This document shows positions 4,884 to 26,206 of a DNA stretch of 32,856 nt, piece by piece; within the stretch, counting starts at the first letter, position 1, and each line of letters opens with the position of its first letter. This DNA comes from Archangiaceae bacterium (GTDB lineage: Bacteria > Myxococcota > Myxococcia > Myxococcales > Myxococcaceae). The stretch lies in assembly GCA_043750125.1 (NCBI GenBank), contig JAYVCD010000042.1, forward strand, positions 1-32,856, written 5' to 3'. A program made the translations under genes and the position numbers. The notes beneath the pieces were generated by a model that was not told the origin of the DNA, ran no database searches, and worked only from the letters and a program-made list of their open reading frames with translations.

Positions 4884-4885
4884 CG

Positions 4886-5752
4886 TTACTCCGTGACGAA
4901 GAAATAGGTGGCCGCGACGAACAGCGCGGCGGCGACGATTCCGCTGACCAGGCTCAGCGTCAGCTGCGAGTTGCTGCGGCTCGCCAGCCGGTCGGCTTCC
5001 GCTGCGGTGTAGAGGGTGGCATTCATTCCGTCGACCATCGTCGACTTCCCATTGAACTGCGCGCGCGCGTTGAGCCCCACCGCGAGGAACGCAACCGAAA
5101 CGCCACCGGCGGCCACGGCGCCACCGCCCAGGGTCCACTTCACCGCGGCCGGTGTCGTCGAGCGTTTGACCTCGGCCGGCGGCCGCTGCTGCACAGCAGG
5201 AACCAAACGCGCAGCGAGGGGAACGTCCTTCGCGGGCTCGGGCACGGGGCGCGGCGCAATCGCCACAGGCGCGGGGGGCGGCGCAAGGCGGGCCAACTCT
5301 TCGACCACCCGCCGAGCGAAGAGCGCGATCGGCACCGCGACCTTGTCGCCCCACCCTTCGGCCGCAGAGGACACGTCGGTGACCAGCAATGACTTTCCGG
5401 TCTGCGCCGACACCGCCTCGAGCCGGACCGCGAGCTGACTGCCGATTTTCCCCACGTCGACCCCCACCACCACCGCGTGCGGGGACAGCAGCGTGGCGAG
5501 CCGGGTGAGGCAGCTGGCTCCGCCCTGGCAATTGCGCGCATCGGAAAAGCCCGCTGCTTTGACCCGTTTCCCGGTGGCCGCATCGTCGAGAGTGTCGGCC
5601 GCGGGGACGCCTTCGCGAATCAAGGCGGCGTGAACCCGCGAGGAGATGCCGCTCGCGTACAGGTCGGCGCCCGGACGCTTGCTCGAGACGACGACGGCGA
5701 TGGGGGACGACGGCGACTGGGACAGCAGGCACAGCAGCACGAAGCCGGTCAT
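4886..5752 (-). CDS. Exported/membrane protein of the type found next to myxobacterial kinases (N-terminal alpha/beta domain, Pro-rich linker, two C-terminal hydrophobic segments)
   Basis: Signal-like N-terminus, CQGGASC motif, Pro-rich linker, hydrophobic segments WTLGGGAVAAGGVSVAFLAVG and LSLVSGIVAAALFVAATYFF. Confidence 0.8.
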   Translation of the reverse strand: MTGFVLLCLLSQSPSSPIAVVVSSKRPGADLYASGISSRVHAALIREGVPAADTLDDAATGKRVKAAGFSDARNCQGGASCLTRLATLLSPHAVVVGVDVGKIGSQLAVRLEAVSAQTGKSLLVTDVSSAAEGWGDKVAVPIALFARRVVEELARLAPPPAPVAIAPRPVPEPAKDVPLAARLVPAVQQRPPAEVKRSTTPAAVKWTLGGGAVAAGGVSVAFLAVGLNARAQFNGKSTMVDGMNATLYTAAEADRLASRSNSQLTLSLVSGIVAAALFVAATYFFVTE

Positions 5753-5794
5753 CGGGCGCGCATCGTAGTCCGAGACTCGCCTTCGTTCGCGACT

Positions 5795-7324
5795 TCAGCT
5801 TCCGTCGAGCTGAGCCTTGATGTCGTCGAGGTTGCGCGACACCGCGCGTCGCTTCGCCTCGGTGTCGGCGGCCCGGGCGTCCAGGCGCGCCTGCCGCAGG
5901 AACTGGCGCAGCACTCCGTCGACGTCGCCGGTGAGTGCCTCCTTCTTTTTCAGCCGATGCTCCAGAGCGCCGAGGCGCTTTTCGAGGCTGTCGGAATTGG
6001 AGACGGGACGTTTGGCGTCGGGCTCTTTGGCCACCGGCGGCAGCTCGACCCGCACGGGTTCGACCGGCGCCTGCGGCCCACCCTGCCTCGTCGGCGCGGC
6101 GATCACCGCGGGCACATCGAGAACCGGAGGAGGAGCCACCAGCACCGGCGCGGCGGAAGGCGGAACAAACGCCTTGAACCCCGCGAACCCGAGCGCGAGC
6201 ACCGTCACCGCGCCCATCACCCAGGGCAGTCGGGCGGAAGCTTTGGGCAGGTCCCCCGAGCGCACCATCGTCGGTGAAAACGCTTCCTCGCCCACGGCCA
6301 CCGGGGCAGAGGGGAAGGTCGGAGAGGGAGTGGCGCGGTTTCGCAGCAGCGCGGCGTCCATCGCCTGCGAAGGAGAAGGCTGCGGAGTGCGGGCGGCCAT
6401 CGGCTGGAAGGCTTCGCCGGTGACCGGGCGGTTGGCCAGCTGGGTGAACGAGATGTCGCTGCTGATTTGTCGGCGCACCGCCTCGCACATCAGGCGCACT
6501 TCTTCGGCGGTCTGAGGTCGTTGGGCCGGGTCTTTCTTCAGCAGCTTCTGCAGCAGCTCGTCGAGCGCCTCAGGCACCAGCGGGTTGAGGCTCTTCGCCA
6601 GCGGCGGAGCGTCCTCGGCGTGCATGAACATCACCTGGTTTTGATTTTCAGCAGGAAAGAGGACCCGACCGGTGACCAGCTCGAACAGCATGCAGCCCAT
6701 CGCGTAGAGGTCGGTGGTCGGCCCGATGGTGCGGCCGCGGGCCTGCTCGGGCGACATGTAGACCGGGGTGCCGATGACCGCCGACGCCTGGGTCTGCATC
6801 CCCGCCTTGCCGCTGGCCAGCTTGGCAATCCCGAAGTCGAGCAGCTTGATGTAGCGGCGGCCGGCGCGCGGCTGCACCATGAAGACGTTCGAAGGCTTCA
6901 CGTCGCGGTGAATGATTCCGAAGTCGTGGGCGGCCCCGAGCGCCTCGAGCACTTCCTCGCACCAGTACAACGCCTCGTGCACCGGAAGCGGGCCGCGGGT
7001 GCGGATGATCGCGTCGAAGGGCTCGCCTTCGAGGTACTCCATCAGGAAATAATGCGAGCCGTCGGGCAGCTGCCCGAACGCGAAAATGTCGACGATGTTC
7101 CGGTGCCGAATCTCGTTCACCGAGCGCGCCTCGGCGACGAACCGCTTCACCAATTCGACGTCGGCCGACAACTGCGGCAACAAGACCTTCACCGCCACCC
7201 GTTTGCCGATGACGGGGTGAATGCCTTCGTACACCGCGCCCATCCCACCGACGCCCATCAGGGTGCCCACCCGGTATTCCCCCAACATCACCCCGTTGAG
7301 ATCCTGAACTGGCTGGGCAGGCAC
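5795..7324 (-). CDS. Transmembrane Hanks-type Ser/Thr protein kinase
   Basis: GVGGMGAVY, VAVKVL, HRDVKPSN, DFG, GTPVYMSPE; TM segment LPWVMGAVTVLALGFAGF; helical C-terminal domain. Confidence 0.95.
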   Translation of the reverse strand: MPAQPVQDLNGVMLGEYRVGTLMGVGGMGAVYEGIHPVIGKRVAVKVLLPQLSADVELVKRFVAEARSVNEIRHRNIVDIFAFGQLPDGSHYFLMEYLEGEPFDAIIRTRGPLPVHEALYWCEEVLEALGAAHDFGIIHRDVKPSNVFMVQPRAGRRYIKLLDFGIAKLASGKAGMQTQASAVIGTPVYMSPEQARGRTIGPTTDLYAMGCMLFELVTGRVLFPAENQNQVMFMHAEDAPPLAKSLNPLVPEALDELLQKLLKKDPAQRPQTAEEVRLMCEAVRRQISSDISFTQLANRPVTGEAFQPMAARTPQPSPSQAMDAALLRNRATPSPTFPSAPVAVGEEAFSPTMVRSGDLPKASARLPWVMGAVTVLALGFAGFKAFVPPSAAPVLVAPPPVLDVPAVIAAPTRQGGPQAPVEPVRVELPPVAKEPDAKRPVSNSDSLEKRLGALEHRLKKKEALTGDVDGVLRQFLRQARLDARAADTEAKRRAVSRNLDDIKAQLDGS

Positions 7325-7354
7325 GTGGCCGGGGAGACTACCGCCTGGCGACGG

Positions 7355-7918
7355 TTAGTTGAAGGCGGCTTCGAGCTTCTTGAGCGCGTCGGCTTCTGGC
7401 TTCGAAATCTTATTGCCCATGCCGAGAATTCCGCCCGAGGCCTCGGCCACCGAGCGCGCCTTCCCCAACAGCTCGCTCTTCAGCAGGGTCTTCTCTTCAG
7501 GCTTCATCCCTTCGACCAGCGCAGTGACGTAGTTGGACCAGGCGAGCTCGAACGCGGCGGGCGGCTTGAGCTTGAGCCAACTTTCCAACAGGGTGTGGGC
7601 GCTGCTGCCCTGGTTGATTCCCGAGGCCTGAGCGGCCGCGAGCACTGCCGCCTGTTCCTTCGCATCGACCGCGCCGTCCGCCCAGGCAACCTGGACCAGC
7701 GGGAAGAGCGAAAGCGCGTGGATGGTCTCGCGGTTCAGCTTGAGCGAAATCAGCTTCTCGAGGACCGCCTCGTTCTGGATCCCGGTCAGCTCCTGAATCC
7801 CTGCTTTATCGAGCGCTTGTTGGGCCTGCGCCTTGAGCTGGTCGACCAGCTTCTGGTTCTGCTTGGCGAAGAACGTCTCTTCCAGCTCTTTGCGGCGGTC
7901 GGCGAGGGCGTCGGACAT
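7355..7918 (-). CDS. TerB-like (tellurite-resistance fold) protein
   Basis: LEETFFAK N-terminus, VAWADGAVDAKE motif and C-terminal VAEASGGILGMGNKISKPE typical of TerB-like proteins. Confidence 0.7.
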   Translation of the reverse strand: MSDALADRRKELEETFFAKQNQKLVDQLKAQAQQALDKAGIQELTGIQNEAVLEKLISLKLNRETIHALSLFPLVQVAWADGAVDAKEQAAVLAAAQASGINQGSSAHTLLESWLKLKPPAAFELAWSNYVTALVEGMKPEEKTLLKSELLGKARSVAEASGGILGMGNKISKPEADALKKLEAAFN

Positions 7919-7927
7919 GCTTTTTAT

Positions 7928-8380
7928 CTATCGCTTCTTTCCTGCTTTCGCACGGCGCTTCTTGACCGACTGCTTCACCGCCAGGTCATTGAGGTCGACG
8001 CGCGAACGGGCCAGCGCATACGCCAGATCATCTCGCAGCAGGCCCTTGCCCACCGCGCCTTCGGGCGACATCGCAAGGCCCACCACCCACTTGGGCCGCT
8101 CTTCCTTCTCGCGCAGCTGGCGGGCGAGCTCGCGCTGCGAATCCCACGGCAGCTTTCCCGCGTCGGGGACGTAGATGACGCCCTTGTTCTTGCTGAACGC
8201 CGCGGTGACGACCTTCTCTTCGGGCTCGGTCAGCTCGGTCAGCGGCCCTTCTTCGGCGAAGGCCGCAGCGGCCTCTTGCGCCCACTGCTGCCGGTCGGCC
8301 TGCGAGGCGCCGTACAGCAGCACCGCCGCGCGGTTGGTGACCAGTTGTGCTTCTGAGTACCCGGAAGACATTTCTTTCAT
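7928..8380 (-). CDS. Degenerate sigma54-activator-like AAA+ domain protein (no Walker A, GAFTGA or HTH)
   Basis: ATG 8380 overlaps the cyclase stop (ATGA). [38 protein letters not shown] and [11 protein letters not shown] align by eye to bEBP VLIxGExGTGKE, GTLFLDEIGELPxxxQxKLLRVL and GRFREDLYYRL. Confidence 0.65.
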
Positions 8381-9846
8381 GAGAGGTCGGCGCTCCTGGA
8401 CGTCGTAACCCGGTAAAGCGGCACCGGTTGGGCTTTGCCCTTGAGTTTGACGGGGGGCAACAACTCGCTGGTCCACCCGGCTTTGGCGGCGCGCTCGGCG
8501 GTCGAGGCGCCGACGAGAATTTCTCCTCCGCCGGCCAGGCTGCACAGCCGCGCAGCGACGTTCACCGCGTCCCCGATGCAGGTGTACTCGGTGCGGCGAG
8601 CGCTGCCCACGCTGCCGGCGACGACCAGGCCGGTGTTGATTCCAATGCCGAGCTCGAGCGGGGTGACGTGCTCGCCGCTGTTGTTCTGCTCGCGCACCGA
8701 TTCCATCATCTGCAGCGCCGCCCGGACCGCGCGTTCGGCGTCATCGTCATGCGCGACCGGAGCGCCGAAGACCGCCATCACTCCGTCCCCCAGGAACTTG
8801 TCGAGCGTGCCGCCGTTGGCGAGCACCGCATCGGTGAGCCGGCCGAGCACCCCGTTGAGCAGGCCCATGACCTGGTCCGGAGGGTAGGTCTCGGCGATCG
8901 AGGTGAAGTTCCGGATGTCGGCGAACAGCACGGTTACGTCGCGCTTCTCGCCCGAGAGGACGACCTCGCCCGACTTGAGAATCTCTTCGACCACCGCGTC
9001 CGAGGTGTACCGGGCGAACAGCCGGCGAATCCGGTCGGTCTCGTTGGTGCGCTTCAAGATGTTTTCCATCCGCGCCGCCAGCTCTTCCATCGACACGCCC
9101 TTGTGGACGTAATCGTCCGCGCCGGCCCGCAAGCCGCCGACCCGCTGCACGTCTTCGTCGTTGGCGGTGAGGATCATCACCGGCACCGAGCGCGAAGGGC
9201 CCTGCTTCAGCCGGCGGCACAGCTCGACGCCGTCGAGGCCCGGCATCTCGAGGTCGGTGAGCACGATGCTCGGGCTGAAGGTGCCGACCGCCTCGAGGGC
9301 AAGAATCGGGTCCTGCCACGACTGAACCTCGTAGCCGAGCATCGTCAGCCCCTGCTCGACCAGGTTGCAGGCCAGCATGCTGTCGTCGACCACCATCACC
9401 TTGACCCCGTTCGAGCCCTCGCGCTGAAGCAGCTGGGCCTGTTCGACATCGGTGGGCTGGGCTTCCATTCGCCGCTGCAGTCCCAGCGCCTCGTAAATCT
9501 GCTGGTTCGAGACCAGGCCCTGCTCGACCAGCAGGTCCCCGAGCTTGCGACCGTCTTCGCGCTGCGCGGCCAGAGCGGATTTCAGCACCGGCTCTTCGAT
9601 GTACTTGAGGCCGACCAGAATCTCGCCCAGGGGAGGACGATCGAGCGAGACCCGATTGCCCGCCGCCAGCGCCTGCGAGAGCGCCCGCTGAAGCTGAATT
9701 CGGGTGATGTACCCCAGGGAAAGCAACGCCTCGCCCACCCGGTGGCCGGTGAGGTGCTGCAGCGCGAGAGCTTCCTGCACCTGAGATCGGGTGACGAAGC
9801 CCATCGTGACGAGGATGTCGCCGAAGCGTTGCGAGACATCGGACAT
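8377..9846 (-). CDS. Class III adenylate cyclase with tandem N-terminal MshEN (c-di-GMP-binding) domains and a receiver domain
   Basis: Four 24-aa MshEN-like motifs; REC domain ([19 protein letters not shown]); cyclase motifs [44 protein letters not shown]. Confidence 0.92.
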
Positions 9847-13786: not shown

Positions 13787-14236
13787 TCAGTCTTTGTGCT
13801 TGTGCTCGTGTTTGTGCTCGTGCTCGTGCTCGTGCTCCTCGTGCTCCTCACGCTCTTCGCGCTTCTCGCCCTTGATCTTGATGCGTCCGGGGCCGGGCGG
13901 GTTGATGACCACCGTTTCCCTGCGCCCGTGCCACCTTCGGTACTGCCCCGGGGCGTAGGTGACAATCGTGCGGGGAACGTAGCGTTCCTCGACGACCACC
14001 CAGCTTCCATTGTGAGTCTGGTTGCGAAACCAGTGGCCGTCGCGGCGGTTCCAGTACCAGTTGTCGACGAAGAAGACCTCGTCGTCACTGTCCTCGACCA
14101 CCTGCACTCCGGGCTGAATCACCACCAGCGGCGGAGGCGCAGGAAAGACGATGCGCGGCAAGGGAATGTCGATGTGAATCTGAGCCAGGCCGGGAGCGGC
14201 GAGGACCAATGTAAGCGCGAGTGCGAGGGTTTTCAT
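13787..14236 (-). CDS. Secreted Trp/Pro-rich hypothetical protein with His/Glu-rich tail
   Basis: Signal peptide; FPAPPPLVVIQPGVQVV, FFVDNWYW...GHWFR; C-terminus EHEEHEHEHEHKHEHKHKD. Confidence 0.8.
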   Translation of the reverse strand: MKTLALALTLVLAAPGLAQIHIDIPLPRIVFPAPPPLVVIQPGVQVVEDSDDEVFFVDNWYWNRRDGHWFRNQTHNGSWVVVEERYVPRTIVTYAPGQYRRWHGRRETVVINPPGPGRIKIKGEKREEREEHEEHEHEHEHKHEHKHKD

Positions 14237-14268: not shown

Positions 14269-15231
14269 TCAGGCGCGGTTGTCGATTCCCAGCTGGGGGT
14301 CGAATTGCTTTTCGCCCAGTCCGGAAGCCTTCTCGCTCTCGAGCACCAGCGTCTCGAGCAACGCCTTCTGCACGTGCAAGCGGTTCTCGGCCTCGTCCCA
14401 CGCGGCGGACTGCGGCCCGTCGATTACCTCGGCCGAGATCTCTTCGCCCCGATGCGCCGGAAGACAGTGAAGAACGATCGCGTGCTTCGCGGCGAGCTTC
14501 ATCAAGGCAGCATCGACGCAGTACCCCTTGAACGCTTTGAGCCGCGCGTCCTTCTCGGACTCTTGTCCCATGCTCGTCCAGACGTCGGTCACCACCACGT
14601 CGGCCCCAGCGACTGCGCGCTGCGGCGAATCGACCACCTGCACGTTGGCGTTCATCACGTCCGCGGCGGGTCGGTAGCCCTCGGGCGAGGCGAGCTTCAG
14701 GGTGAAGCCGAACAGCTTCGCCGCTTCGCAGTACGAACGGCCCATGTTGCTGGCGGTGTCGCCGACGAAGGCGATCGTCTTCGAGGCGAACGAGCCCAGC
14801 CGCTCTTCAATCGTGAACAGGTCGGCCAACAGCTGTACCGGGTGACCGCCGTCGGTGAGCCCGTTGATGACCGGCACTGTCGCGGCGCTGGCGAACTGCC
14901 GCAGCCGCTGATCGGCGAAGGTGCGCATCATGATGCAGTCCGAATAGCGCGAGGTGACGCGGGCAGTGTCTTCCAGAGGCTCGCCGCGGTTCATCTGGCT
15001 GTCGGCGGTGGGCAAGGTGATGCAGTGGCCTCCGAGCTGGGCCATCGCGGCTTCGAATGACAGGCGGGTCCGGGTGGAAGCCTTCTCGAAGATCAACACC
15101 AGGGTGCGCCCCTGAAGCGTCTGCACCACCCGCCGCTGGGCGCGCGCCTCTTTGAGCACCTTGGTTCGCCGCATCAAGGCGTTGTGCTCGTCCTTCGACA
15201 GGTCCGACAGGGTGAGGAAGTCGCGTTTCAT
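14269..15231 (-). CDS. argF: Ornithine carbamoyltransferase
   Basis: FEKASTRTR, HPVQLLAD, DVWTSMG (SMG ornithine loop), HCLP, AENRLHVQKA. Confidence 0.96.
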   Translation of the reverse strand: MKRDFLTLSDLSKDEHNALMRRTKVLKEARAQRRVVQTLQGRTLVLIFEKASTRTRLSFEAAMAQLGGHCITLPTADSQMNRGEPLEDTARVTSRYSDCIMMRTFADQRLRQFASAATVPVINGLTDGGHPVQLLADLFTIEERLGSFASKTIAFVGDTASNMGRSYCEAAKLFGFTLKLASPEGYRPAADVMNANVQVVDSPQRAVAGADVVVTDVWTSMGQESEKDARLKAFKGYCVDAALMKLAAKHAIVLHCLPAHRGEEISAEVIDGPQSAAWDEAENRLHVQKALLETLVLESEKASGLGEKQFDPQLGIDNRA

Positions 15232-16679
15232 TTCCAGTTCTCCTTCAGCTTCATGAACAACCCATCGAGTCGAGGAACGGCCTGCGCACGCGCGGACATC
15301 GAAGCGAGCCGTTGGTTCAAATCACTCAGCTGCTTCGAGACTGCCTGATCGCCGGTGCCCCCTTCCGAATTCTTTCGGGCCGCGGCGGCTCGGGGCTCAA
15401 GCACGGTCAGCACCGCGGCATCGATGCGCGGGTCGACCTGCGCGGCGGCTTCCAGCGTCATCTTCGCCAGCGGCACGCCTTGCTCGCGCGAGGCCCGCAC
15501 CAGCCGACCGACCGCCTGGTAGGCGTCGCGAAACGCGATCCCCTTCTTCACCAGCGCCTCGGCCAGGTCGGTGGCCTGGGTGCTGCCGTCTTCGAGAGCA
15601 GCGCGACAGACGTCGGGCTCGAACTTCACGTTCTTCAAGGCCAGCCGCAGCACGCTCAAGCACCCATCGACGCGGGTCCCCATCTCGAGCAGGGGGCCGC
15701 GGTCTTCCTGAAGATCCCGGTTGTACCCGCCGGGCAGACCCTTCACCGTCGCGAGCAGGCCGGTGAGCGCGCCGATCGCCGACCCGCTTCTGCCGCGCAG
15801 CAGCTCGAAGACGTCGGGGTTTCGTTTGTGGGGCATCATCGAGCTGCCGCAGGCGATCTGACCGCCGAGGGTGACGAAGCCGAATTCCTTCGAGGAAAAG
15901 TCGATCAAGTCGGTCGACAGCCGGCCCAGTCGCACCAGCAGGCGGGTCGAGGCGTAGAGGAAGTCGAGCGCAAAATCGCGATCGCCCACGGTGTCGAGCC
16001 CGTTGTCCGTCATGCGCGAGAAGCCAAGCGCCTGCCGCATCGATTCGCGGTCGGTGTTCATCGAGGTGCCCGAGATCGCGCCCACCCCGAGCGCGAGGGT
16101 GTCTGACTGGTCGAGCACGAAGCCGAATGCTTCCCCATCGCGCAGCAAGCCCGCGGCCCACGAGGCCCACCAGTAGGCCAGGCTGATCGGCTGCGCGCGT
16201 TGACGGTGGGTGTACGCGGGCAACACCACCTCGCGGCTCGCCTGAGCGTATTGGAGCAGCTCTTCGACCAGGCCCGACAACGACTGCAAGGTCCGGACGC
16301 ATTGCTCGCGCGTCCACAGCCGCAGGTCGGTGGCGACTTGATCATTTCGCGATCGCGCGGTGTGCAGCACCTGGGACGCAGCGCCGATGCGCCGCTGCAG
16401 CTCGGCCTCGACCGCCATGTGGACGTCCTCTTCGTCCGGCAGCACCAGCGTGCCTTTGAGCGCGTCGTCCCAGAGGCCGACCAGCCCCTGGTGAATGGCG
16501 CGCGCGTCGGCGTCGGGGACCAGCTTCTGGCGCGCGAGCATCGCGATGTGCGCCAGGCTGCCGATCAAGTCCTCTTTGAGCAGCGCGCGGTCCAGCGCCA
16601 GCGAGCTCGAGAAGGCGAGCACCTGGGGATGAAGAGTCGCTCCACCGGCGGCATCTGTCTTGGCAACGATCGAGCTCAT
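15228..16679 (-). CDS. argH: Argininosuccinate lyase
   Basis: EDVHMAVE, HTARSRNDQVATD, PAYTHRQRAQP, GSSMMPHKRNPDVFEL, GYNRDLQEDR. Confidence 0.96.
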   Translation of the reverse strand: MSSIVAKTDAAGGATLHPQVLAFSSSLALDRALLKEDLIGSLAHIAMLARQKLVPDADARAIHQGLVGLWDDALKGTLVLPDEEDVHMAVEAELQRRIGAASQVLHTARSRNDQVATDLRLWTREQCVRTLQSLSGLVEELLQYAQASREVVLPAYTHRQRAQPISLAYWWASWAAGLLRDGEAFGFVLDQSDTLALGVGAISGTSMNTDRESMRQALGFSRMTDNGLDTVGDRDFALDFLYASTRLLVRLGRLSTDLIDFSSKEFGFVTLGGQIACGSSMMPHKRNPDVFELLRGRSGSAIGALTGLLATVKGLPGGYNRDLQEDRGPLLEMGTRVDGCLSVLRLALKNVKFEPDVCRAALEDGSTQATDLAEALVKKGIAFRDAYQAVGRLVRASREQGVPLAKMTLEAAAQVDPRIDAAVLTVLEPRAAAARKNSEGGTGDQAVSKQLSDLNQRLASMSARAQAVPRLDGLFMKLKENWK

Positions 16680-17140
16680 CCTTTCCCCTTCTTCCAGATG
16701 GTTCTGAAGTGATTGGCGACCCGCGACGGACGAATGCCCTTGGCGGGCACGATGAAGATGGTGTCGTCGCCAGCCAGAGTCCCAAGCACCCCCTGGGGGC
16801 GGCCGGCGTCGATTGCTCCCGCGACCACCGAGGCGGCTCCGGGACGGGTGCGCAGCACCACCATCGCGTCGCTCTCATCGACGGTGGTGACCAGCGCGTG
16901 CACGGCGCGCAGCCCTTCGAGCCCTCCGCTGACGGGAGCGTCGTCGAGCTCGTACGCCGTCCCGCCTTCCGGCAGCTGAATCCGGCGCGCCATCAGAGCC
17001 CCGAGATCGCGGCTGAGCGTGGCCTGCGTCACCTCGATGCCGGCTTTCCCCAGCAGCTTGCCCAGCTCTTCCTGGGTCCCCACCACTTGCGAGCGAATCA
17101 GCCGGCGAATCGTGTCGCGGCGCTGATGCAGCGCACTCAT
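16676..17140 (-). CDS. argR: Arginine repressor
   Basis: Start at ATG 17140, overlapping the upstream stop (ATGA); TQEEL, VTQATLSRDL, GTLAGDDTIFI. Confidence 0.95.
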   Translation of the reverse strand: MSALHQRRDTIRRLIRSQVVGTQEELGKLLGKAGIEVTQATLSRDLGALMARRIQLPEGGTAYELDDAPVSGGLEGLRAVHALVTTVDESDAMVVLRTRPGAASVVAGAIDAGRPQGVLGTLAGDDTIFIVPAKGIRPSRVANHFRTIWKKGKG

Positions 17141-19155
17141 CCGACGGTCACCAGGGTGCCGACGCCCTGATCGGTGAAGAGCTCGGCGATGACGCTGTGC
17201 GGAGTGCGGGCGTCGATGACATGCACCCGCTCGACCCCCGAGCTCGCCGCCCACAGCGCGGCCTTCGCCTTGGCGAGCAGGTTTCCCTCGAAAGCGCCGG
17301 CCTTGAGGTGGGTCTCGAGCAGCGAGGTCGGCATCTGCTGCACCAGCTCGTCTTCCACCATCAGCCCCGTAGCGCCGGTCAGCAACACCAGCTTCGAGGC
17401 GTTGAGCTCTTTGGCCACCATCGCCGCGACCTGGTCCGCGTCGAGCGGCACGCTCTCACCCTGCTCGGTGATTCCCACCGGAGCGATGACCGGCACGTAC
17501 CCCTTCGCCAAAAACATCTCGAGCATTTCGGCGTTCACCTTCAGCAGCTCGCCGACGCAGAACTCACCCTTGGTCGACACGCCCTTCTTCGCCCGCAGCA
17601 GGCCGCCGTCCTGCCCCGAGACGCCAATCGCCGCGCTTCCGTTTCGGTTGAGCAACGTCACCAGCTCGAGGTTGGTGCTTCCGGTCACCAGCACCTCGCG
17701 CAGCTTCGCGTCGCCCGTCGCGCCCGGCGCTTCGCCGTGGACGACGATCGGCACCATTCCCACCGACTTGCAGGTTCACGTCTTCGCAAAACGCCTGGCG
17801 CAGCGAGTCCTTCGACAGCGCGGCCTTCCCCAGCTTCAGCACGCAGCGCTTGCCCGCGAACTTCGAGATGTACGAGAGCGCCTGGGTCAGCAGCGTGACC
17901 TTGAAGCTCGGGCTGTAGTTGGTGAGGCGGTCGTCGCGGGTGACCGAGCCGTCGGTCGCGGGCTTGAGCAGGCTGGTGTAGTCGGCGTTGATCTTCACGT
18001 AGTCGTAGCTCAGGTCGCAGCCCCACGCGGTCGACTCGGCCTCGCCCGCGCGCAGCTCGACCGTCACTTTCACCTCGGGCTCGCGCATTCGCGCCTTGAG
18101 TCGGGCCGCCGAGTCGAGGGTCGGCTTCTGGTCATAGACGCAGATGCCTTGAATGGTGACCTTCGAGCCGTGGGGATCCAGGGCCCAGCCTTGAGAGCCC
18201 GCGCGCGCGCCGACCGTGGCGAGCACCCGACCCCAGTTCGGGTCCGCGCCGAAGATCGCGGCCTTCACCAGTGAGGAACCGGCGATCGCCTTGGCGAAGT
18301 CGGTGGCCATCTTCAGGTCCGGCGCTCCGGTGACCTTCACTTCGAGCAGCTTGGTCGCACCTTCGCCGTCGGCGGCGATCTCGCGCGCGAGCTCCTGGCA
18401 CAGCGAATAGAGCGCGAGGCGGAACTTTTCGTAGTCGCTGCCCGGGTCGGCGATGGGGGTGTTGCCGGCCAGCCCGTTGGCGAGCGCAAACACCGCGTCG
18501 TTGGTCGACATGTCGTTGTCGACGGTCAGGTTGTTGAAGCTCCCGTCCATCGAAGCGGTCAGCGCGCGCTGAAGCATCGGGGCCGAGATGGCGGCGTCGG
18601 TGGTGACCACCGCAATCATCGTCGCCATCTGGGGGGCGATCATTCCCGAGCCTTTGCAGATCGCCGACAGCGTCACCTGTTTGCGGTTGAGAGAAATGGT
18701 GCGCGAGGCGACCTTCATTCGGGTGTCGGTGGTGAGAATCGCTTCCGCCGCCGCTTCCGGAGCCGCGGTCAGCGCCGCGACCAGCCGGGGCAGCGCGCCG
18801 ATGATCTTCTCTTTGGGCAGCCGCACTCCGATGATCCCGGTCGAAGCGGACAACACCGCCGCCGCGCCCCCGGTGAGGCTGAGCGCCGCAGCCAGTGCTT
18901 CGTGAACGGTGTGGACGTCTTCGATTCCCGAAGGGCCGGTGAGCGCATTGGCGTTGCCGCTGTTGATCAACACCGCATGGATCCCGATCGCCGGCACCCG
19001 CGATGCCGCGTCGATCACCGGAGCCGCCTTCGCCGTATTCGCCGTCAACGCCGCCGCCGCGGTGCAGGGCGTCGGGCTGTAGACCAGGGCCAGGTCTTTC
19101 TTGTTGGGCTTGATCCCGGCGTGAAGCCCGGCGAACTGAAAACCTTTGGCGATGC

Positions 19156-19159
<4 letters not shown>
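17137..19159 (-). CDS. argJ: ArgJ (ornithine acetyltransferase/N-acetylglutamate synthase) fused to a degenerate N-acetylglutamate kinase (ArgB-like) domain; frameshift near 17770
   Basis: ArgJ motifs INSGNANA, STGIIG, KGSGMIAPQMATM, DMSTND, DGEGATK, DPNWGR, WGCDLSYDYVKINADYTS continue in frame into QALSYISKFAGKRCVLKLG...EDVNL. The ArgB-like sequence resumes in the +1 frame (KSVGMVPIVVHG...ELFTDQGVGTLV). Confidence 0.9.
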
Positions 19160-20175
<1,016 letters not shown>

Positions 20176-20179
20176 TGTG

Positions 20180-20215
20180 CGCGCATATACATGCACGCTT
20201 TATTCATTGTAAAGA
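20180..20215 (-). promoter_or_regulatory. arg operon promoter with ARG box (ArgR operator)
   Basis: AT-rich island. Minus strand reads TTTACA atgaataaagcg TGCATGTATATGCG cgcaca ATG. 20180-20197 is a near-palindromic 18-mer resembling TGnAT-wwww-ATnCA, with a further ATGAATAAA half-site upstream. Confidence 0.8.
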
Positions 20216-21713: not shown

Positions 21714-23498
21714 CTACTTCTTCTCGCGCTTGAGCTGCCGAATCGCTTCGGCCGCTTCGTCCTGGCCGCAGTTGTACTGCCCGTTGGATCTCTCTTCCTT
21801 CGGCAACTCGGAGAGCTCTCGCAGCGCCGCGACCGCGTCGCGATCTCCAAACTCCGAGAGACGAACGGCCGCCTTGGCGCGCACCTCGCAATCCTTGTCG
21901 GCCAGGGCCCGCGAATACAGGTCGACCCGATCCAGCTTCTGGTGAAGGCCCGCGAAGTCGAGGTAGCGCAGCGCGCCCCACTGTTTGCGAGAGCGTTTGC
22001 CAATGGCGAAGCCCTCGAACTGCGTCGTCAGCGTCTGGGTCGGCACGACTTCCATCATCGCCCGCAGCTCGGCATCGGACTCCGAGCTGGCGAAGTCTTC
22101 CGCAAGCGCCTCGAGCAGCAACGGATGCGCGGCGTGCAAAGCCTGGTAGGTGCGCTCGCGCAACAGCGCGCGTTCTTCGATGTGGCGATCGAGCCGATGC
22201 AGCGCAGCGGCCTTGAGCGCGGTGAGCTCGGGAACTTCTGCCGGGGCCTCGAGCTCCCGTTGATCGAGCAGCTCGATCGCCTGCTCGGCGCTGCCGTTCT
22301 CGATCATCATCGCCGCGCGTTGAGCGGGAGTGGCCGGCAACATCGCCCACGCCGCGGACAGCGTGATCACAATCACCGCGGTCCACATCAAGCTTCGCCA
22401 CCACTCGCGATCGACTTTCCCAGCGACGACCAGCGCGCGCCGGGCCTGGGTGAGGCCCGCTTCTCCGAGCAGCGAAGTGCGCTGCTGAACCTCGGCCCAC
22501 TTCGAAGGCTTGTCGGGCCCTCCGGGGGAAGTGCTGGTCACCGCAGCCAGCGCCTTGGCCGAGGTCGCGTTGAAGATTCTGCGGCTGGGAGTGGTGACCG
22601 AAGACTCGAAGGGGCTGACGGGCATCTGCGGCATCAGCCGCTCGAGCAGCGCGTGGCCGTTCTTCGGCCGCGCGTCCGGCTTCTTTTCCAGACAATCCAT
22701 CACCAGCAGCACCAGGGCCGGGTGCAGTTTGAGGCTCGGCATCACCTCGGCCAGCGGCCGGGGGGGCGAGAGCAGGTGCTGCTTCAAGAAGTCCTGAGAG
22801 CCCGGGCCGGGAAAGGGAAATTGGCCCGAGAGCATTCGGTAGGCGAGCACTCCGAACGAGTAGACATCGGTGCGGGTGTCCAGCGTGCCGGCCACCGCCT
22901 GCTCAGGAGCGACGTACGCGGGCGTGCCCACCACCTGTCCCGGCTGGCTGATGAACGGGTTGTCGACCCCGCCCAAGGGTGGCGCGCCTTCGAGGACATC
23001 GGGAATTTCCATCAGCCGGGCGATGCCGAAGTCGAGCAGCCGCGCCTGGTCTCCGCGGGGTGTCGGGGTGAGCACCACGTTCTGCGGCTTGATGTCCCGG
23101 TGGACGATGCCCTTCTCGTGAATCGCACCGAGGCCGTCGGCAATCTGCGCGAGAATCGGAATCGCGCGCTCGGGAGACATCGGGCCGGGCTTCATCACCT
23201 TTTCGAGCGTTTCGCCCTCGGCCAGCTCGAGCACCAGAATCGTGGCCTCGGGCGCCGACTCGAAATCGATGACCCGCACCACCGACGGGTGGTCCACCGT
23301 GCAGAGGATTCGCGCCTCGCGGCGAAACCTCTCGGCCATCTCGGGGCGCTTGCCCAAATCTCGCTTCAGGACTTTGAGCGCGACCTTCCGGCCCAGCGAG
23401 ACCTGCTCGGCCAGGTACACCTCGGCCATGCCGCCGCCCCCCAGGTGGCTGAGCACCCGAAACCTTCCTCCGAGGACATGCAGGTCTTCCGGCTTCAA
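21714..23498 (-). CDS. Transmembrane Ser/Thr protein kinase with C-terminal HEAT/TPR-like helical domain
   Basis: LGGGGMAEVY, VALKVL, HRDIKPQN, DFG, GTPAYVAPE; TM LMWTAVIVITLSAAWAM; DKDCEVRAKAAVRLSEFGDRDAVAAL HEAT-like repeat. Confidence 0.93.
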   Translation of the reverse strand: MKPEDLHVLGGRFRVLSHLGGGGMAEVYLAEQVSLGRKVALKVLKRDLGKRPEMAERFRREARILCTVDHPSVVRVIDFESAPEATILVLELAEGETLEKVMKPGPMSPERAIPILAQIADGLGAIHEKGIVHRDIKPQNVVLTPTPRGDQARLLDFGIARLMEIPDVLEGAPPLGGVDNPFISQPGQVVGTPAYVAPEQAVAGTLDTRTDVYSFGVLAYRMLSGQFPFPGPGSQDFLKQHLLSPPRPLAEVMPSLKLHPALVLLVMDCLEKKPDARPKNGHALLERLMPQMPVSPFESSVTTPSRRIFNATSAKALAAVTSTSPGGPDKPSKWAEVQQRTSLLGEAGLTQARRALVVAGKVDREWWRSLMWTAVIVITLSAAWAMLPATPAQRAAMMIENGSAEQAIELLDQRELEAPAEVPELTALKAAALHRLDRHIEERALLRERTYQALHAAHPLLLEALAEDFASSESDAELRAMMEVVPTQTLTTQFEGFAIGKRSRKQWGALRYLDFAGLHQKLDRVDLYSRALADKDCEVRAKAAVRLSEFGDRDAVAALRELSELPKEERSNGQYNCGQDEAAEAIRQLKREKK

Positions 23499-24745
23499 GG
23501 CGGCGGATACTGCCCTTGTAGACGCGACGTGTCGAAGGCGGCGAAGTCCGACGGGCGCTGAAGTGACAGGGGGACCACTCGCAGAATGCGCGCGCGACGT
23601 TGGACCCCTTCGGCCAGTCGTCGGGTCAGCACCTTTCTCTGACTGGCGCTGACCTTGTCATCGCGCCCTTCGATCGCCCGCAGCCGTTCGCGCATCGCCC
23701 CGAGCTCCTCGTCGATCACCGTGGGCTGCACGTTGCGAGAGCCGCGCTGGAAAACATTTTCGGTCCACAGCGGCAGCGCTGCCAGTTGACTCATCGTCAC
23801 TTTCGCCTCTGGCCCCGTCCGCTCGAGGACCAGCTTGAGCAGCAAGCCGTCGCGCTTGGGGCTTTGCGCATCCGAGCTGTCCTGATTGCTGACCAGATTT
23901 CCGAGCGAGAAGGCCACCACCGCTTCAGAGCCATCGGCCCGCTCGACGGTCTGAATCGGCTGCAGCACGTGGGGGTGGTGGCCGACGATCGCCAGCGCAC
24001 CGGCCTCGACCAGCTTCCAGGCCAGCGTGCGGTCCTCGGGGCGCGGCTCGGGTCGGTATTCCTCGCCCCAGTGGGGAAGGACAATCAACGCATCGCACTG
24101 CGCTGCCGCCGCGCGCACCCGAACCAGCAACTGAGCCTCGTTGCAGCCCCCGCTGGTTACGTCATCGTCGTAGTGAACCAGCGGCACGTGCGGCGCGGCG
24201 GAATCGGCCGAGTTGTGAAACCCGTTGAGGAACCGGGTGAAGGCGAAGAAGCCAATCTTGATTCCGTTTCGCTCGACGACCAACGGGGCCCACGCCTTCT
24301 CTTCATTCACGTCCGCCCCGGCCGAGAGCAGCCCGGCTTTTTCCAGCGCCAGCCGGGTGGCCACGATTCCTTCGCGGTGCTGATCGAGCCCGTGGTTGTT
24401 GGCGAACGTGGCGATGTCCACCCCCGAAGAGACGAGCCCATCGAGCAGCGCCGACGGGGCATCGAACAACATGTTGCCGGTCAACGCCCGGGGGTTGCCG
24501 CTGATCGGCGTCTCGAGATTGACGATCGCCAGGTCGACGCCCGCGAAGGTCTGAGCCAGCGGACCGAATACATGGTCCCACCCCTGGTGGTTCAAGCTCT
24601 GGCCCGGCGCGCTCGGGTCCGGCCGGGTGTGAGTCTGGGCCGTGGCCTTCACCGGAGCGTGAGGAATGACGTCCCCTCCGAAGATCAGCTCGACCCGAGC
24701 GGGCGCGGCCAGCAGCATCGAAAGACACAGGGGCAGGCCGACCAC
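23495..24745 (-). CDS. CapA/PgsA-family metallophosphoesterase-fold protein (exported)
   Basis: GGDV, VNLETP, ANNHGLD, PHWGEEY, GHHPHVLQP, FSLGN; signal-like N-terminus. Confidence 0.92.
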   Translation of the reverse strand: MVGLPLCLSMLLAAPARVELIFGGDVIPHAPVKATAQTHTRPDPSAPGQSLNHQGWDHVFGPLAQTFAGVDLAIVNLETPISGNPRALTGNMLFDAPSALLDGLVSSGVDIATFANNHGLDQHREGIVATRLALEKAGLLSAGADVNEEKAWAPLVVERNGIKIGFFAFTRFLNGFHNSADSAAPHVPLVHYDDDVTSGGCNEAQLLVRVRAAAAQCDALIVLPHWGEEYRPEPRPEDRTLAWKLVEAGALAIVGHHPHVLQPIQTVERADGSEAVVAFSLGNLVSNQDSSDAQSPKRDGLLLKLVLERTGPEAKVTMSQLAALPLWTENVFQRGSRNVQPTVIDEELGAMRERLRAIEGRDDKVSASQRKVLTRRLAEGVQRRARILRVVPLSLQRPSDFAAFDTSRLQGQYPPP

Positions 24746-24754
24746 GAGCGAGCG

Positions 24755-26206
24755 CTATTCCAGCTGAGACTTGATCCGGCGGGCGTCTTCGGTGCGGTGC
24801 AGTCGGGTGAAGCAGCGCATCTGGTTGACGAGCACGGCGCGGCGCCATCGGGGCTCCTCGGTCGCCACCGACGGCTTGTCCCCCAGCCAATTGTCGGCCC
24901 GCTTGAGCGCTTCGTCGCAGTTGCCTTCGTCGGCGAGCTTTCCAATGTCGCGCGAGCGGCCTTCGCGAATCGTGGAACCCACCGCGGCAAAAGGCGCCTG
25001 AATCGCGCGGGTGAACTTCCTCAGCCGCTGCTCGAGCCCGGCCAACGACAACACCGAGGCCGCTTCATCTTCTGCCGGGGCAGGCGCTTCGTAGACCGGC
25101 GGCTCGTCCTCGACCCCGCCTCCCGCGTTGGGCGGCGCGCTGGGATTTTGCAGAGGACCCGGGGGGGCGACCACTCCCGTCCTGGGCAGGTTGGGCGGAG
25201 CGGCCCATTCGTCGTCGGGGTTCTGCACCGTCGGAGCGATGAACGCTTCGATCGCCGGAGTCGGCGGGCTCGCCAGCGCGGGCCTGGCACCCACCGGCGG
25301 GGCGGGCGTCCAGGCCTGCTCGCGCAGCTGACCTTCGCGCCACTCGACGCTGCGGCCGGCCTTGAGCGTCATCCGGCTTCCCGGAGCATTGATTTCCACC
25401 ACGCCTTCTTCCACCGCGACCAACACCCGATTCAGATCGCGCGAGACGAGGAAGCGGGTGCCGATGTCGCGCACTTCGATTTCCCCCGCCTTCACCGTCA
25501 TCGCCCGCGCGGGAAGGTGGCGCGCCACCATCATCACGTCCCCTTTCTTCAACGTGAAGCTCAGCGCCGAGTCTTCCAGCGTGTCGATCTGCAACTCGGT
25601 GCTGCCGGTCAACCCGGCGCGGCTTCCATCGGGAAGCGCAAGCCACAGCGCCCCACCGGGCGCGGTCGAGACCTGGTCCCCTTCCGCCAGCGTCTGCATC
25701 TTGAGCAGCTTCCCGTCCTGACTTCGGGCCTTCTTCGCCCCGGTGACCTTCGCGAGCAGCTTCGGTCGGGCCAGGGGCTCGGGCAGCGCCAGCGGCGGGG
25801 CTTGAGCCACCTGCGGCGCAGCGGTCGGAGGGGCAGGGACTTCCTGTCGGGCGACGGGCATCGGCTGTGGCTGGGTCTGCGCCTGGGTCCAGAGCAACAC
25901 CGCCAGCACCGCCGCAGCGAGCCCGGCCAGGGCCCAGCCGAAGTTGAAGGCGAACGGCCACCGGCCCCGGGCCTGCATCTGCAGCTCGGCGGCCTCTTTG
26001 AGGACGGCTCCGATGCGCCGGGCGGCGATGGGGTCGAGCGGAGGAGGCACCGACGCGCGCAGCTGCAGCAGCGCCTGGGCCTGCTTGACGTTCGCGAGCT
26101 GAACCTGGCAGTCGCCGCAGGTCGACAGGTGGGCCTGGACCTCGCGGGGCAGATTCGCGGCGGTCGCGAGCTCCCAAAGGCTGTCGCGGTTGAGGTGCGC
26201 GCTCAT
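24755..26206 (-). CDS. Anti-sigma factor: ZAS zinc motif, TM helix, FecR domain, C-terminal TPR-like helix pair
   Basis: HLSTCGDC (HxxxCxxC); TM; LPDGSR...VRDIGTRFLV...VAVEEGVVEI (FecR); ATGA overlap with the ECF sigma. Confidence 0.88.
   Translation of the reverse strand: MSAHLNRDSLWELATAANLPREVQAHLSTCGDCQVQLANVKQAQALLQLRASVPPPLDPIAARRIGAVLKEAAELQMQARGRWPFAFNFGWALAGLAAAVLAVLLWTQAQTQPQPMPVARQEVPAPPTAAPQVAQAPPLALPEPLARPKLLAKVTGAKKARSQDGKLLKMQTLAEGDQVSTAPGGALWLALPDGSRAGLTGSTELQIDTLEDSALSFTLKKGDVMMVARHLPARAMTVKAGEIEVRDIGTRFLVSRDLNRVLVAVEEGVVEINAPGSRMTLKAGRSVEWREGQLREQAWTPAPPVGARPALASPPTPAIEAFIAPTVQNPDDEWAAPPNLPRTGVVAPPGPLQNPSAPPNAGGGVEDEPPVYEAPAPAEDEAASVLSLAGLEQRLRKFTRAIQAPFAAVGSTIREGRSRDIGKLADEGNCDEALKRADNWLGDKPSVATEEPRWRRAVLVNQMRCFTRLHRTEDARRIKSQLE

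Follow-up and report, generated by a model that had tools for sequence, protein, structure and literature searches.

How an ArgJ protein came to end in an acetylglutamate kinase-like domain with altered catalytic motifs, and what that domain may now do, are the questions raised by a locus of an Archangiaceae bacterium. The stretch of DNA analysed here (the window) is 32,856 nucleotides long and constitutes the whole of contig JAYVCD010000042.1 of a metagenome-assembled genome (GCA_043750125.1; 460 contigs, 89.4% complete). It contains a minus-strand arg operon of five genes in the order argC, argJ fusion, argR, argH, and argF (14269-20196), the second of which encodes ArgJ (ornithine acetyltransferase/glutamate N-acetyltransferase) joined to a domain of the N-acetylglutamate kinase (NAGK) type. 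In acetyl-recycling organisms with ArgJ, arginine feedback normally acts on NAGK, and ArgJ is regarded as ornithine-inhibited. A previous sequence-only reading of this DNA had suggested that the fused domain is catalytically dead, that it keeps the arginine-feedback signature, and that it may place ArgJ under arginine control. The analyses described below lead us to lean, by a small degree, towards that proposal, in which a regulatory pseudokinase fused to ArgJ would act as an ArgA-like arginine sensor controlling it.

The fused protein and its altered kinase-like domain

The fused gene (19159..17137, minus strand; stop codon 17137-17139) codes for about 674 aa once its frame is restored. Its ArgJ domain, residues 1-389 (17993..19159, minus strand), was found to be complete: PF01960 matched residues 9-396 with 440.6 bits, covering profile positions 2-377 of 377, and the ArgJ family models NF003802 (435.2 bits vs. 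351) and TIGR00120 (390.9 bits vs. 298) were both passed. The domain carries the self-cleavage motif PQMATMIAV, in which we take the Thr of A-T-M to be the nucleophile. Past the usual ArgJ end (…YVKINADYTS) the reading frame continued into a conserved linker of 31 residues, INADYTSLLKPATDGSVTRDDRLTNYSPSFK (17900..17992, minus strand), whose core DDRL.NYSP.FK is common to relatives with an intact kinase domain, and then into the N-terminal part of the kinase-like domain (17771..17899, minus strand). Translation and alignment identified in this part the N-helix TLLTQALSYISKFAGK and strand 1, with KLGK (17825-17836) replacing KYGG. The remainder of the kinase-like domain (17140..17769, minus strand), assigned by PF00696, matches in the PDB, and comparison of motifs, lay in a second frame.

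In the letters of the window, the ArgJ frame (open reading frame, ORF, 19159..17564) differs from the frame of the kinase-like domain (ORF 17763..17137, 208 aa), and it turns to out-of-frame sequence following …EDVNLQ. A DNA alignment of the window with four same-genus genomes and one from another genus (loci L014-L018) revealed that two bases are absent between 17769 and 17770, where the window reads CTGC--AAG and the five relatives read CTGCT[G/C]AAG. All same-genus relatives showed a single open frame across both domains. Sixteen public sequencing runs, none recorded as RNA, carry the stretch or part of it, and Logan contigs of four of them (X1-X4) were compared. The contig of X1 and X2 (0.96 of words) over 17300-17788 was otherwise identical to the window and had an extra 'GA' (plus strand) behind 17769, and X3 and X4, representing a related strain with 23 differences, had 'CA' inserted behind 17769. 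Downstream of the break no stop was present, and the translation was 89-94% identical to those of same-genus relatives. Most likely the gap arose during assembly or, at most, reflects a minor variant, for which the contigs yield no allele fractions. Since it was absent from the five relatives and from independent contigs, the gene was considered as a whole fusion of about 674 aa. The earlier statement that ArgJ runs in frame into the kinase domain is thus incorrect for the letters of the window and most likely correct for the organism.

Two further observations were made on the assembly of this gene. Over 17946-18047, which contains codons of the ArgJ C-terminus (…GCDLSYDYVKINADY…), each of the four runs showed a rise in summed contig depth from about 10 to roughly 1000, and many short contigs terminated at 17978/17979 and 18020; this rise presumably comes from other ArgJ-bearing organisms of the community that match the conserved stretch. 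A frame break was also present in the same fusion of another genome (L034, genome G035), where it lies close to the HGGG strand in a kinase domain that is otherwise of the intact type, and frame breaks may be a recurring assembly problem in this GC-rich gene.

The 208-aa piece encoded by the second frame matched AA_kinase (PF00696) with 73.4 bits. It reached 121 bits with the argB model TIGR00761, under the cut-off of 151.3 and over model positions 72-231 alone (120.2 bits in the genome-wide scan, also below the cut-off). Arginine-inhibited hexameric NAGKs were its closest relatives by sequence in the PDB (2buf, 9e-35; 2bty, 3.8e-34; 2jj4, 2e-32), followed by weaker matches to E. coli NAGK (2.5e-10) and to N. 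gonorrhoeae N-acetylglutamate synthase (NAGS; 2r8v, 1.6e-9). The changes previously listed for KxGG, HGGG, the RVT hairpin, N(V/I)NAD, and GGMxPK were each recovered in the window by translation and by alignment with 2buf and 2bty. Besides KLGK, the domain has HGEA at 17728-17739 in place of HGGG, PLDAD (17434-17448) in place of NINAD, and GNLLAK (17269-17286), with its Lys retained, in place of GGMLPK. A hairpin deletion of about 21 residues (about 17701-17727) leaves 19 residues between HGEAPG and LREVLV, compared with 40 in 2buf, and removes the RVT motif. The replacement of LLTDV by LLTGA, next to PLDAD, had been listed as well; this change is present but constitutes a weak sign of decay, since the active P. 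aeruginosa NAGK has LLTNIAG there.

We take K8, the glycine loops with G11, G44, and G45, and D162 (E. coli numbering) to be catalytic positions of NAGK. Ten catalytic positions were scored in total, with R66, N158, and K217 adopted from PMC4490483. The window and its genus have K, G, K, E, A, a deletion, P, D, D, and K at K8, G10, G11, G44, G45, R66, N158, N160, D162, and K217, respectively, so that four of the ten are kept. The arginine pocket, as described in PMC4490483, comprises an N-terminal helix, a loop with the motif E-(L/I)-(F/M)-(T/S)-X-X-G-X-G-T, and two key residues, a Lys from the central sheet and a Glu from the last helix. The N-helix, the SKL lysine, and ELFTDQGVGT had been reported as retained, and all of them could be located in the window: the helix as QALSYISKFAGK, the arginine-site Lys at 17392-17394, and the loop at 17155-17184 (EIFTDSGVGT in 2buf).

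For structure prediction, the full-length protein of a same-genus relative (L016:106-2124, 673 aa) was folded as an AlphaFold monomer from a 61-row alignment. The model had a mean predicted local distance difference test (pLDDT) value of 83.8 and a predicted template modelling score (pTM) of 0.58; both domains were confident, a helix was formed at residues 416-431, and linker residues 384-419 had pLDDT below 50. In Foldseek searches the ArgJ half matched the ornithine acetyltransferase 1vz8 (template modelling, TM, score 0.88 of target), and the kinase half matched 2bty (0.81) and 2buf (0.78-0.81), with TM scores relative to the target of 0.78-0.82 across NAGKs. No PDB entry spanning both halves appeared in the fold search. 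A three-copy complex prediction of the kinase-like domain (alignment residues 25-284), run without controls, gave scores of 0.02 and 0.25 against a mark of 0.42, values that speak neither for nor against oligomerization.

Distribution and course of change among relatives

The distribution of the fusion was surveyed in several ways. Forty-one related genomes were searched with the 208-aa piece, and the fusion was found in 28. A pattern scan covering one genome per species gave 397 pattern matches, in which 383 stretches encode a relative, and 80 loci were kept; these belong to Myxococcaceae/Archangiaceae bins and isolates, and the isolates include Archangium minus, A. gephyra, A. violaceum, A. 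lansingense, Cystobacter fuscus, and a Vitiosangium strain. Two scan patterns were used, the C-terminal arginine motif and the ArgJ end. The latter could find fusions devoid of the arginine motif and found none: the arginine loop stands at the end of each of the 103 fused loci. A protein search yielded 1023 proteins at E <= 1e-10 among 8000 candidates scored. All 120 proteins among the matches listed had both Pfam domains, and those that were named in their source were called 'acetylglutamate kinase', 'bifunctional … ArgJ', and, once, 'hypothetical protein'.

Of 301 Myxococcota genomes, 126 (one of them the unpublished G220) contained a match to a 110-residue junction query made up of the ArgJ end, the linker, and the kinase start. 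By family, matches occurred in 56 of 115 genomes of the window's family and in 39/39, 7/7, 4/5, and 16/20 genomes of other families; within two large genera of the window's family there were none (0/18 and 0/29). Judging by these junction matches, the ArgJ-NAGK fusion is old and widespread in the phylum Myxococcota.

The 103 fused loci comprised 90 distinct kinase regions. Six loci were set aside (two unfused NAGKs, one frame-broken assembly, one with MNADY for INADY, and two cut by contig ends), and the C-terminal motif was missing from none of these. All ten catalytic positions were kept in 17 of the 90 fused domains, and the hairpin deletion occurred in 47. Position K8 was K in 72 domains and R in 16; G11, the second Gly of KxGG, was G in 45, R in 39, and K in 5 (R, K, or Q together in 45); G44 was G in 44 and E in 45; R66 was deleted in 47, R in 26, and L in 14; N158 was N in 19, P in 42, and D in 19; D162 was D in 89; and K217 was K in 72 and R in 17. 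By contrast, seven of eight arginine-site positions were invariant: all 90 domains have the Tyr of the helix, the Lys of the sheet, and the Glu, Phe, Thr, Gly, and Gly of the loop, and the eighth and last position was T in 54 and S in 36.

These domains fell into recognizable types. The intact type has KYGG, HGGGPE, DG.RVT, YN.NAD, and GGM..K. The deletion type (45 rows, including the window's genus) has K(L/V/I)G(K/R/Q), HGE., PL(D/E).D, and.N…K, with both lysines kept and a hairpin of 8-10 residues vs. 29. The substitution type (16 rows, including all cultured Archangium, Cystobacter, and Vitiosangium strains) has IRYGG, keeps HGGGPE, and shows YDLGSD and GSM..R, the RVT Arg being changed to Leu in 14 of 16 (LIT, LIS, LVS). 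Partial forms were present at nine loci (L025, L030, L031, L037, L038, L109, L112, L116, and L117), and two others, L039 and L040, were deletion forms with other boundaries and other accompanying motifs. Among the aligned full-length fusions, the nucleophile position of the ArgJ A-T-M motif was Thr in 44/61 and Ser in 17/61. Each of these 17 reads Ser then Thr (A-S-T) and is either L039 or a member of the HGESPE deletion sub-clade; A-T-M is retained in the window (region 18617-18625) and its genus. In the A-S-T fusions either Ser acts as the nucleophile or the cleavage register is shifted by one residue.

The motif losses proved to be shared beyond this genome, a point that the sequence-only reading had proposed to check: K(L/V)G(K/R), HGE, and the hairpin deletion were present in four other genomes of the genus and in five further genera of the family. 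That reading had also named intact relatives around a single decayed copy as the sign of ordinary pseudogenization. Near relatives do not show this pattern; distant relatives do have an intact fused NAGK, and this shows the direction of change.

A tree of the ArgJ domain only, independent of the trait, was calculated from 88 rows (IQ-TREE quick, LG+G4). It placed 44 deletion rows in one group (Shimodaira-Hasegawa-like approximate likelihood ratio test, SH-aLRT, 92) and the substitution type in one clade (96), and L039 and L040 with partial or intact forms (95 and 99). Three independent hairpin deletions were considered and are not claimed: the tree needs three changes, but an approximately unbiased (AU) test does not reject a single clade of 46 deletion rows (p 0.097), a group that was named after inspection of the tree. 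Their differing boundaries and motifs only suggest a separate origin of the deletions in L039 and L040. The deletion type keeps the lysines and has lost the hairpin and the glycines, and the substitution type shows the opposite. Since neither type can be derived from the other without reversals, the catalytic residues were lost at least twice from an intact ancestor.

A separate ArgB and the probable function of the fused domain

On the contig that forms the window, the fused domain was the sole amino-acid-kinase match, in agreement with the earlier observation that the operon has no intact argB. The separate argB whose existence the sequence-only reading had proposed to check was found elsewhere in the genome. 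Of eight amino-acid-kinase matches, C453:19493-20227 alone passed the argB cut-off (TIGR00761, 189.3 bits). This gene, argB2, codes for 285 aa with all catalytic motifs (KIGGE, HGGGPQ, GGRRVTD, FNINAD, and GGMIPK) and directly follows a second argC (argC2; 354 aa, TIGR01850 344.3 bits). At locus L043 (8224-11309, plus strand; contig C453 of genome G000) a DUF819 membrane-protein gene is followed by argC2 and then argB2, and the genome thus has two argC genes. ArgB2 is devoid of the N-helix, its PDB alignments starting at residue 25 of 2buf and 47 of 2jj4, and its C-terminus has …LDEAQNPGSRGT… where the arginine loop would stand. Counterparts from 19 further genomes kept the catalytic motifs and showed no loop motif, with R, K, or A at the pocket-Lys position, and argC2 adjoined argB2 in 16 of the 19. 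From these features ArgB2 is predicted to be arginine-insensitive. A LysW-type pathway for the argC2-argB2 pair was considered and discarded: [LysW]-kinase models gave 101.7 bits vs. 223, and no LysW or LysX Pfam match was obtained in the ten neighbouring ORFs.

A second argB was present in 19/19 genomes with an altered fused domain (one gene cut by a contig end) vs. 3/9 genomes with intact or intact-looking ones. The 19 altered genomes comprised 12 with the hairpin deletion (ten of the main clade plus G011 and G017, the sources of L039 and L040) and seven of the substitution or partial type. This association fits the idea that the fused kinase is free to decay only when a second kinase is available. 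No classical ArgA exceeded the TIGR01890 cut-off of 202.85 in this genome (best 76.6 bits; genome 89% complete), no GNAT domain was found by Pfam in the proteins of the window, and the fused gene was the sole ArgJ match in the same genome.

Selection on the degenerate domain was estimated by the Nei-Gojobori method in the window, L015, L016, L017, and L048. Within the genus (10 pairs), the linker-plus-kinase region had a ratio of nonsynonymous to synonymous substitution rates (dN/dS) of 0.05-0.30, and the ArgJ domain one of 0.07-0.23. The expectation of a dN/dS below 1 was therefore borne out, in the same range as for ArgJ. Between-genus values (0.46-0.77 for the domain) were set aside because dS plateaus at about 0.5-0.7 in this GC-rich, codon-biased DNA. 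Positions conserved in at least 90% of the deletion clade numbered 26/33 in the linker, 15/23 in the arginine loop and C-terminus, 9/15 in the N-helix, 41/112 in the N-lobe, and 40/102 in the C-lobe. The ratio of kinase to ArgJ p-distances, a descriptive value from non-independent pairs, was 1.09 for the deletion type, 0.74 for the intact type, and 0.76 for the substitution type. Taken together, these sequence comparisons argue that clear constraint on the degenerate domain remains despite the relaxation expected after loss of catalysis.

From this pattern we infer loss of kinase activity, arginine binding, and an effect on ArgJ, which can be combined as follows. The product of the gene would be one ArgJ protein of about 674 residues, whose C-terminal domain descends from a NAGK of the arginine-inhibited hexameric type. 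Phosphorylation of acetylglutamate by the fused domain has very probably been lost, given that the domain has no substrate lid and that its glycine loops and substrate asparagines have given way to other residues, and the kinase step would have been taken over by the separate ArgB encoded beside argC2. The elements that make up the arginine pocket are retained, namely the N-helix with its Tyr, the Lys of the sheet, the Glu of the last helix, and the loop E-L-F-T-x-x-G-x-G-T. In the manner of ArgA's kinase-like domain, the fused domain would most likely bind arginine and, by changing its conformation, act on the acetyltransferase to which it is joined. ArgJ, the sole source of N-acetylglutamate found in the genome, would thereby come under end-product control.

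Several points weigh against this mechanism. The monomer model (pTM 0.58) showed no confident contact between the ArgJ and kinase-like domains. Lys8, Asp162, and Lys217 are still conserved in the deletion clade (K in 72/90, D in 89/90, and K in 72/90 overall), and residual nucleotide or phosphoryl chemistry is possible in this type. Retention of the arginine-site residues could also serve the packing of the N-helix, and through it oligomer assembly, instead of arginine binding. The deletion-type distance ratio of 1.09, against 0.74 for the intact type, indicates some relaxation of constraint as far as such ratios can be read. The association of the second argB with altered domains was counted without phylogenetic correction, nearly all sequences are metagenome bins of one family, and the relatives are non-independent. 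Finally, an ArgA or another NAGK could be located in the part missing from this 89% complete genome.

The main rival to the sensor is a purely structural role, in which the dead domain would be kept for its ring surfaces and N-helix, for ArgJ oligomerization or for its docking to ArgB2 or ArgC as a metabolon, with no arginine regulation. The linker and the N-helix are the most conserved parts, and in hexameric NAGKs and ArgA they make inter-subunit contacts, according to PMC4490483; the linker is conserved yet predicted to be disordered in the monomer, as expected if it were packed only in an assembly; and the yeast NAGS-NAGK metabolon offers a precedent (PMC3329491). Nevertheless, all 90 domains retain the pocket residues that touch the ligand and not an adjacent subunit (the Lys of the sheet, the Glu of the last helix, and the loop E-L-F-T-x-x-G-x-G-T). 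The fold does not require these residues, since ArgB2, the stand-alone kinase of the same genomes, folds in their absence. On this balance we judge a role as scaffold only to be unlikely, while taking it seriously.

Retention of the K, D, K triad in the deletion clade would also agree with an altered enzyme or a nucleotide binder, using Lys8, Asp162, and Lys217 on a substrate other than acetylglutamate or sensing ATP/ADP, and constraint, measured relative to ArgJ, is as strong on the substitution clade as on intact kinases (0.76 vs. 0.74). Such a function is improbable in view of what has happened around the triad: neither of the two phosphate-binding glycine loops is preserved (KxGG has K/R as its second Gly, and HGGG has become HGE(A/S/G/Q)), the hairpin that bears Arg66 is gone, Pro replaces Asn158, Asn replaces the Gly of GGM, Gly replaces the Asp of TD, and in the Archangium/Cystobacter clade Arg replaces both lysines. 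Ordinary decay, with the kinase half a relic in a gene already frameshifted in this organism, would account for the frame-splitting gap of the assembled window and for the somewhat faster evolution of the deletion-type domain relative to the intact type. It is hard to reconcile with the presence of the two bases in independent contigs of runs that hold the DNA, with the open frame and 89-94% identity past the break, with the occurrence of the same degenerate form across genera at a within-genus dN/dS of 0.05-0.30, and with the fact that none of the 103 fused loci has lost the domain, all ending with the arginine loop; we consider it highly improbable. An arginine-sensing pseudokinase controlling ArgJ is the reading that we retain, by a narrow margin.

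Operon setting, known systems, and meaning

The genes adjoining the fusion are consistent with a compact arginine operon. Upstream, argC (20196..19156, minus strand; TIGR01850 367.7 bits vs. a cut-off of 233.6, with Pfam semialdehyde dehydrogenase domains) overlaps the start of argJ by four bases at its 3' end. Downstream lie argR, coding for the arginine repressor (16676..17140, minus strand; Pfam Arg_repressor 56.3 and Arg_repressor_C 68.5 bits on ORF 16676..17254), whose start at 17140 was set from the sequence and whose ATG overlaps the stop of the fused gene (ATGA); argH, for argininosuccinate lyase (15228..16679, minus strand; Lyase_1 173.1 and ASL_C2 71 bits); and argF, for ornithine carbamoyltransferase (14269..15231, minus strand; OTCace_N 167.1 and OTCace 176 bits). 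Neighbouring genes overlap by exactly four bases throughout, argR with argH and argH with argF included, the overlaps being of the ATGA or GTGA type; this arrangement, with the repressor gene in the middle of the operon, suggests translational coupling. At 13790-13960, just upstream of the argF end, runs of LVLVLVLV and SCSCSCSC in translations of both strands point to a short tandem DNA repeat of intergenic nature. Pfam searches further identified gyrA, cut by the contig end (3-2459, minus strand), a response-regulator/nucleotide-cyclase fusion (8377-9846, minus strand), a PGA_cap capsule-synthesis protein (23495-24745, minus strand), and a FecR-domain protein (24755-26206, minus strand); two large ORFs (2631-6488, minus strand, and 6467-8356, plus strand) had no Pfam match at E <= 1e-5.

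By family models the fusion is a member of the ArgJ family and falls outside ArgB and ArgA, and in design it is most ArgA-like. As in the ArgA of N. gonorrhoeae (NAGS; 2r8v and 3d2p), an acetylglutamate-making enzyme is combined with a NAGK-derived non-kinase domain that has an arginine pocket (PMC4490483); of these entries, 2r8v was matched by sequence (1.6e-9) and 3d2p by fold. Unlike in ArgA, the partner is ArgJ, a self-cleaving acetyltransferase of the Ntn type that has no relationship to the GNAT domain of ArgA, and the domain order is reversed, with the kinase-like domain at the C-terminus. The fusion scored 69.8 bits with TIGR01890 vs. 202.85, over model positions 142-289 (the kinase-like part) only, and its kinase-like domain is far nearer to true NAGKs (2buf, 9e-35). 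With the arginine-inhibited hexameric NAGKs (P. aeruginosa 2buf, T. maritima 2bty, Synechococcus 2jj4), which were its best sequence and fold matches, it shares the N-helix and the arginine loop; it differs from them in being fused to ArgJ, in having lost the glycine loops, the hairpin, and the asparagines, and in scoring under the argB cut-off. Intact Myxococcota ArgJ-NAGK fusions (among them L023, L024, L026, L028, and L029) have an identical architecture, linker, and operon place, but these keep all motifs (17/90) and reach 238-261 bits with the argB model, and presumably they are genuinely bifunctional.

Among described cases, the nearest to an inactive fused NAGK domain accompanied by a separate NAGK is the vertebrate-like NAGS of Azospirillum sp. 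B510; in that protein, according to PMC4490483, the fused NAGK domain carries R66D, N158G, and K217T, and a separate gene supplies NAGK. There the partner is of the GNAT type, the losses are point changes, and the lineage is another one. In yeast, the DUF619 domain of NAGK and the NAGS-NAGK metabolon show how a dead domain of a neighbouring enzyme modulates arginine inhibition and assembly (PMC3329491). That case is a mirror image of the present one, with a dead acetyltransferase-like domain attached to an active kinase, in a eukaryotic tetramer. A search of the full-text literature, with subscription journals and supplements outside its reach, found no paper on an ArgJ-kinase fusion or its degenerate form, and passages of PMC1382215 and PMC7311316 contained no mention of such a fusion.

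In practical terms, the database name 'acetylglutamate kinase' is probably wrong for the degenerate forms, and pathway reconstructions should seek the separate argC2-argB2 pair. If the sensor reading is true, these proteins would represent a second, independent kinase-turned-sensor of ArgA's design, built on an unrelated acetyltransferase. The graded series of intact bifunctional, partial, substitution, and deletion types makes the route from a catalytic to a regulatory pseudoenzyme directly testable, and the substitution type is available in cultivable Archangium, Cystobacter, and Vitiosangium strains. More broadly, and as a tentative proposal that we hold to be possible but short of probable, ArgJ may have replaced the kinase step as the enzyme-level target of arginine feedback in one large branch of the Myxococcaceae, where a bifunctional ancestor would have lost its kinase chemistry by at least two routes and kept the pocket as an allosteric sensor. 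If so, this branch would offer a natural and still-graded replay of the event thought to have yielded ArgA from NAGK, with living intermediates in cultivable strains.

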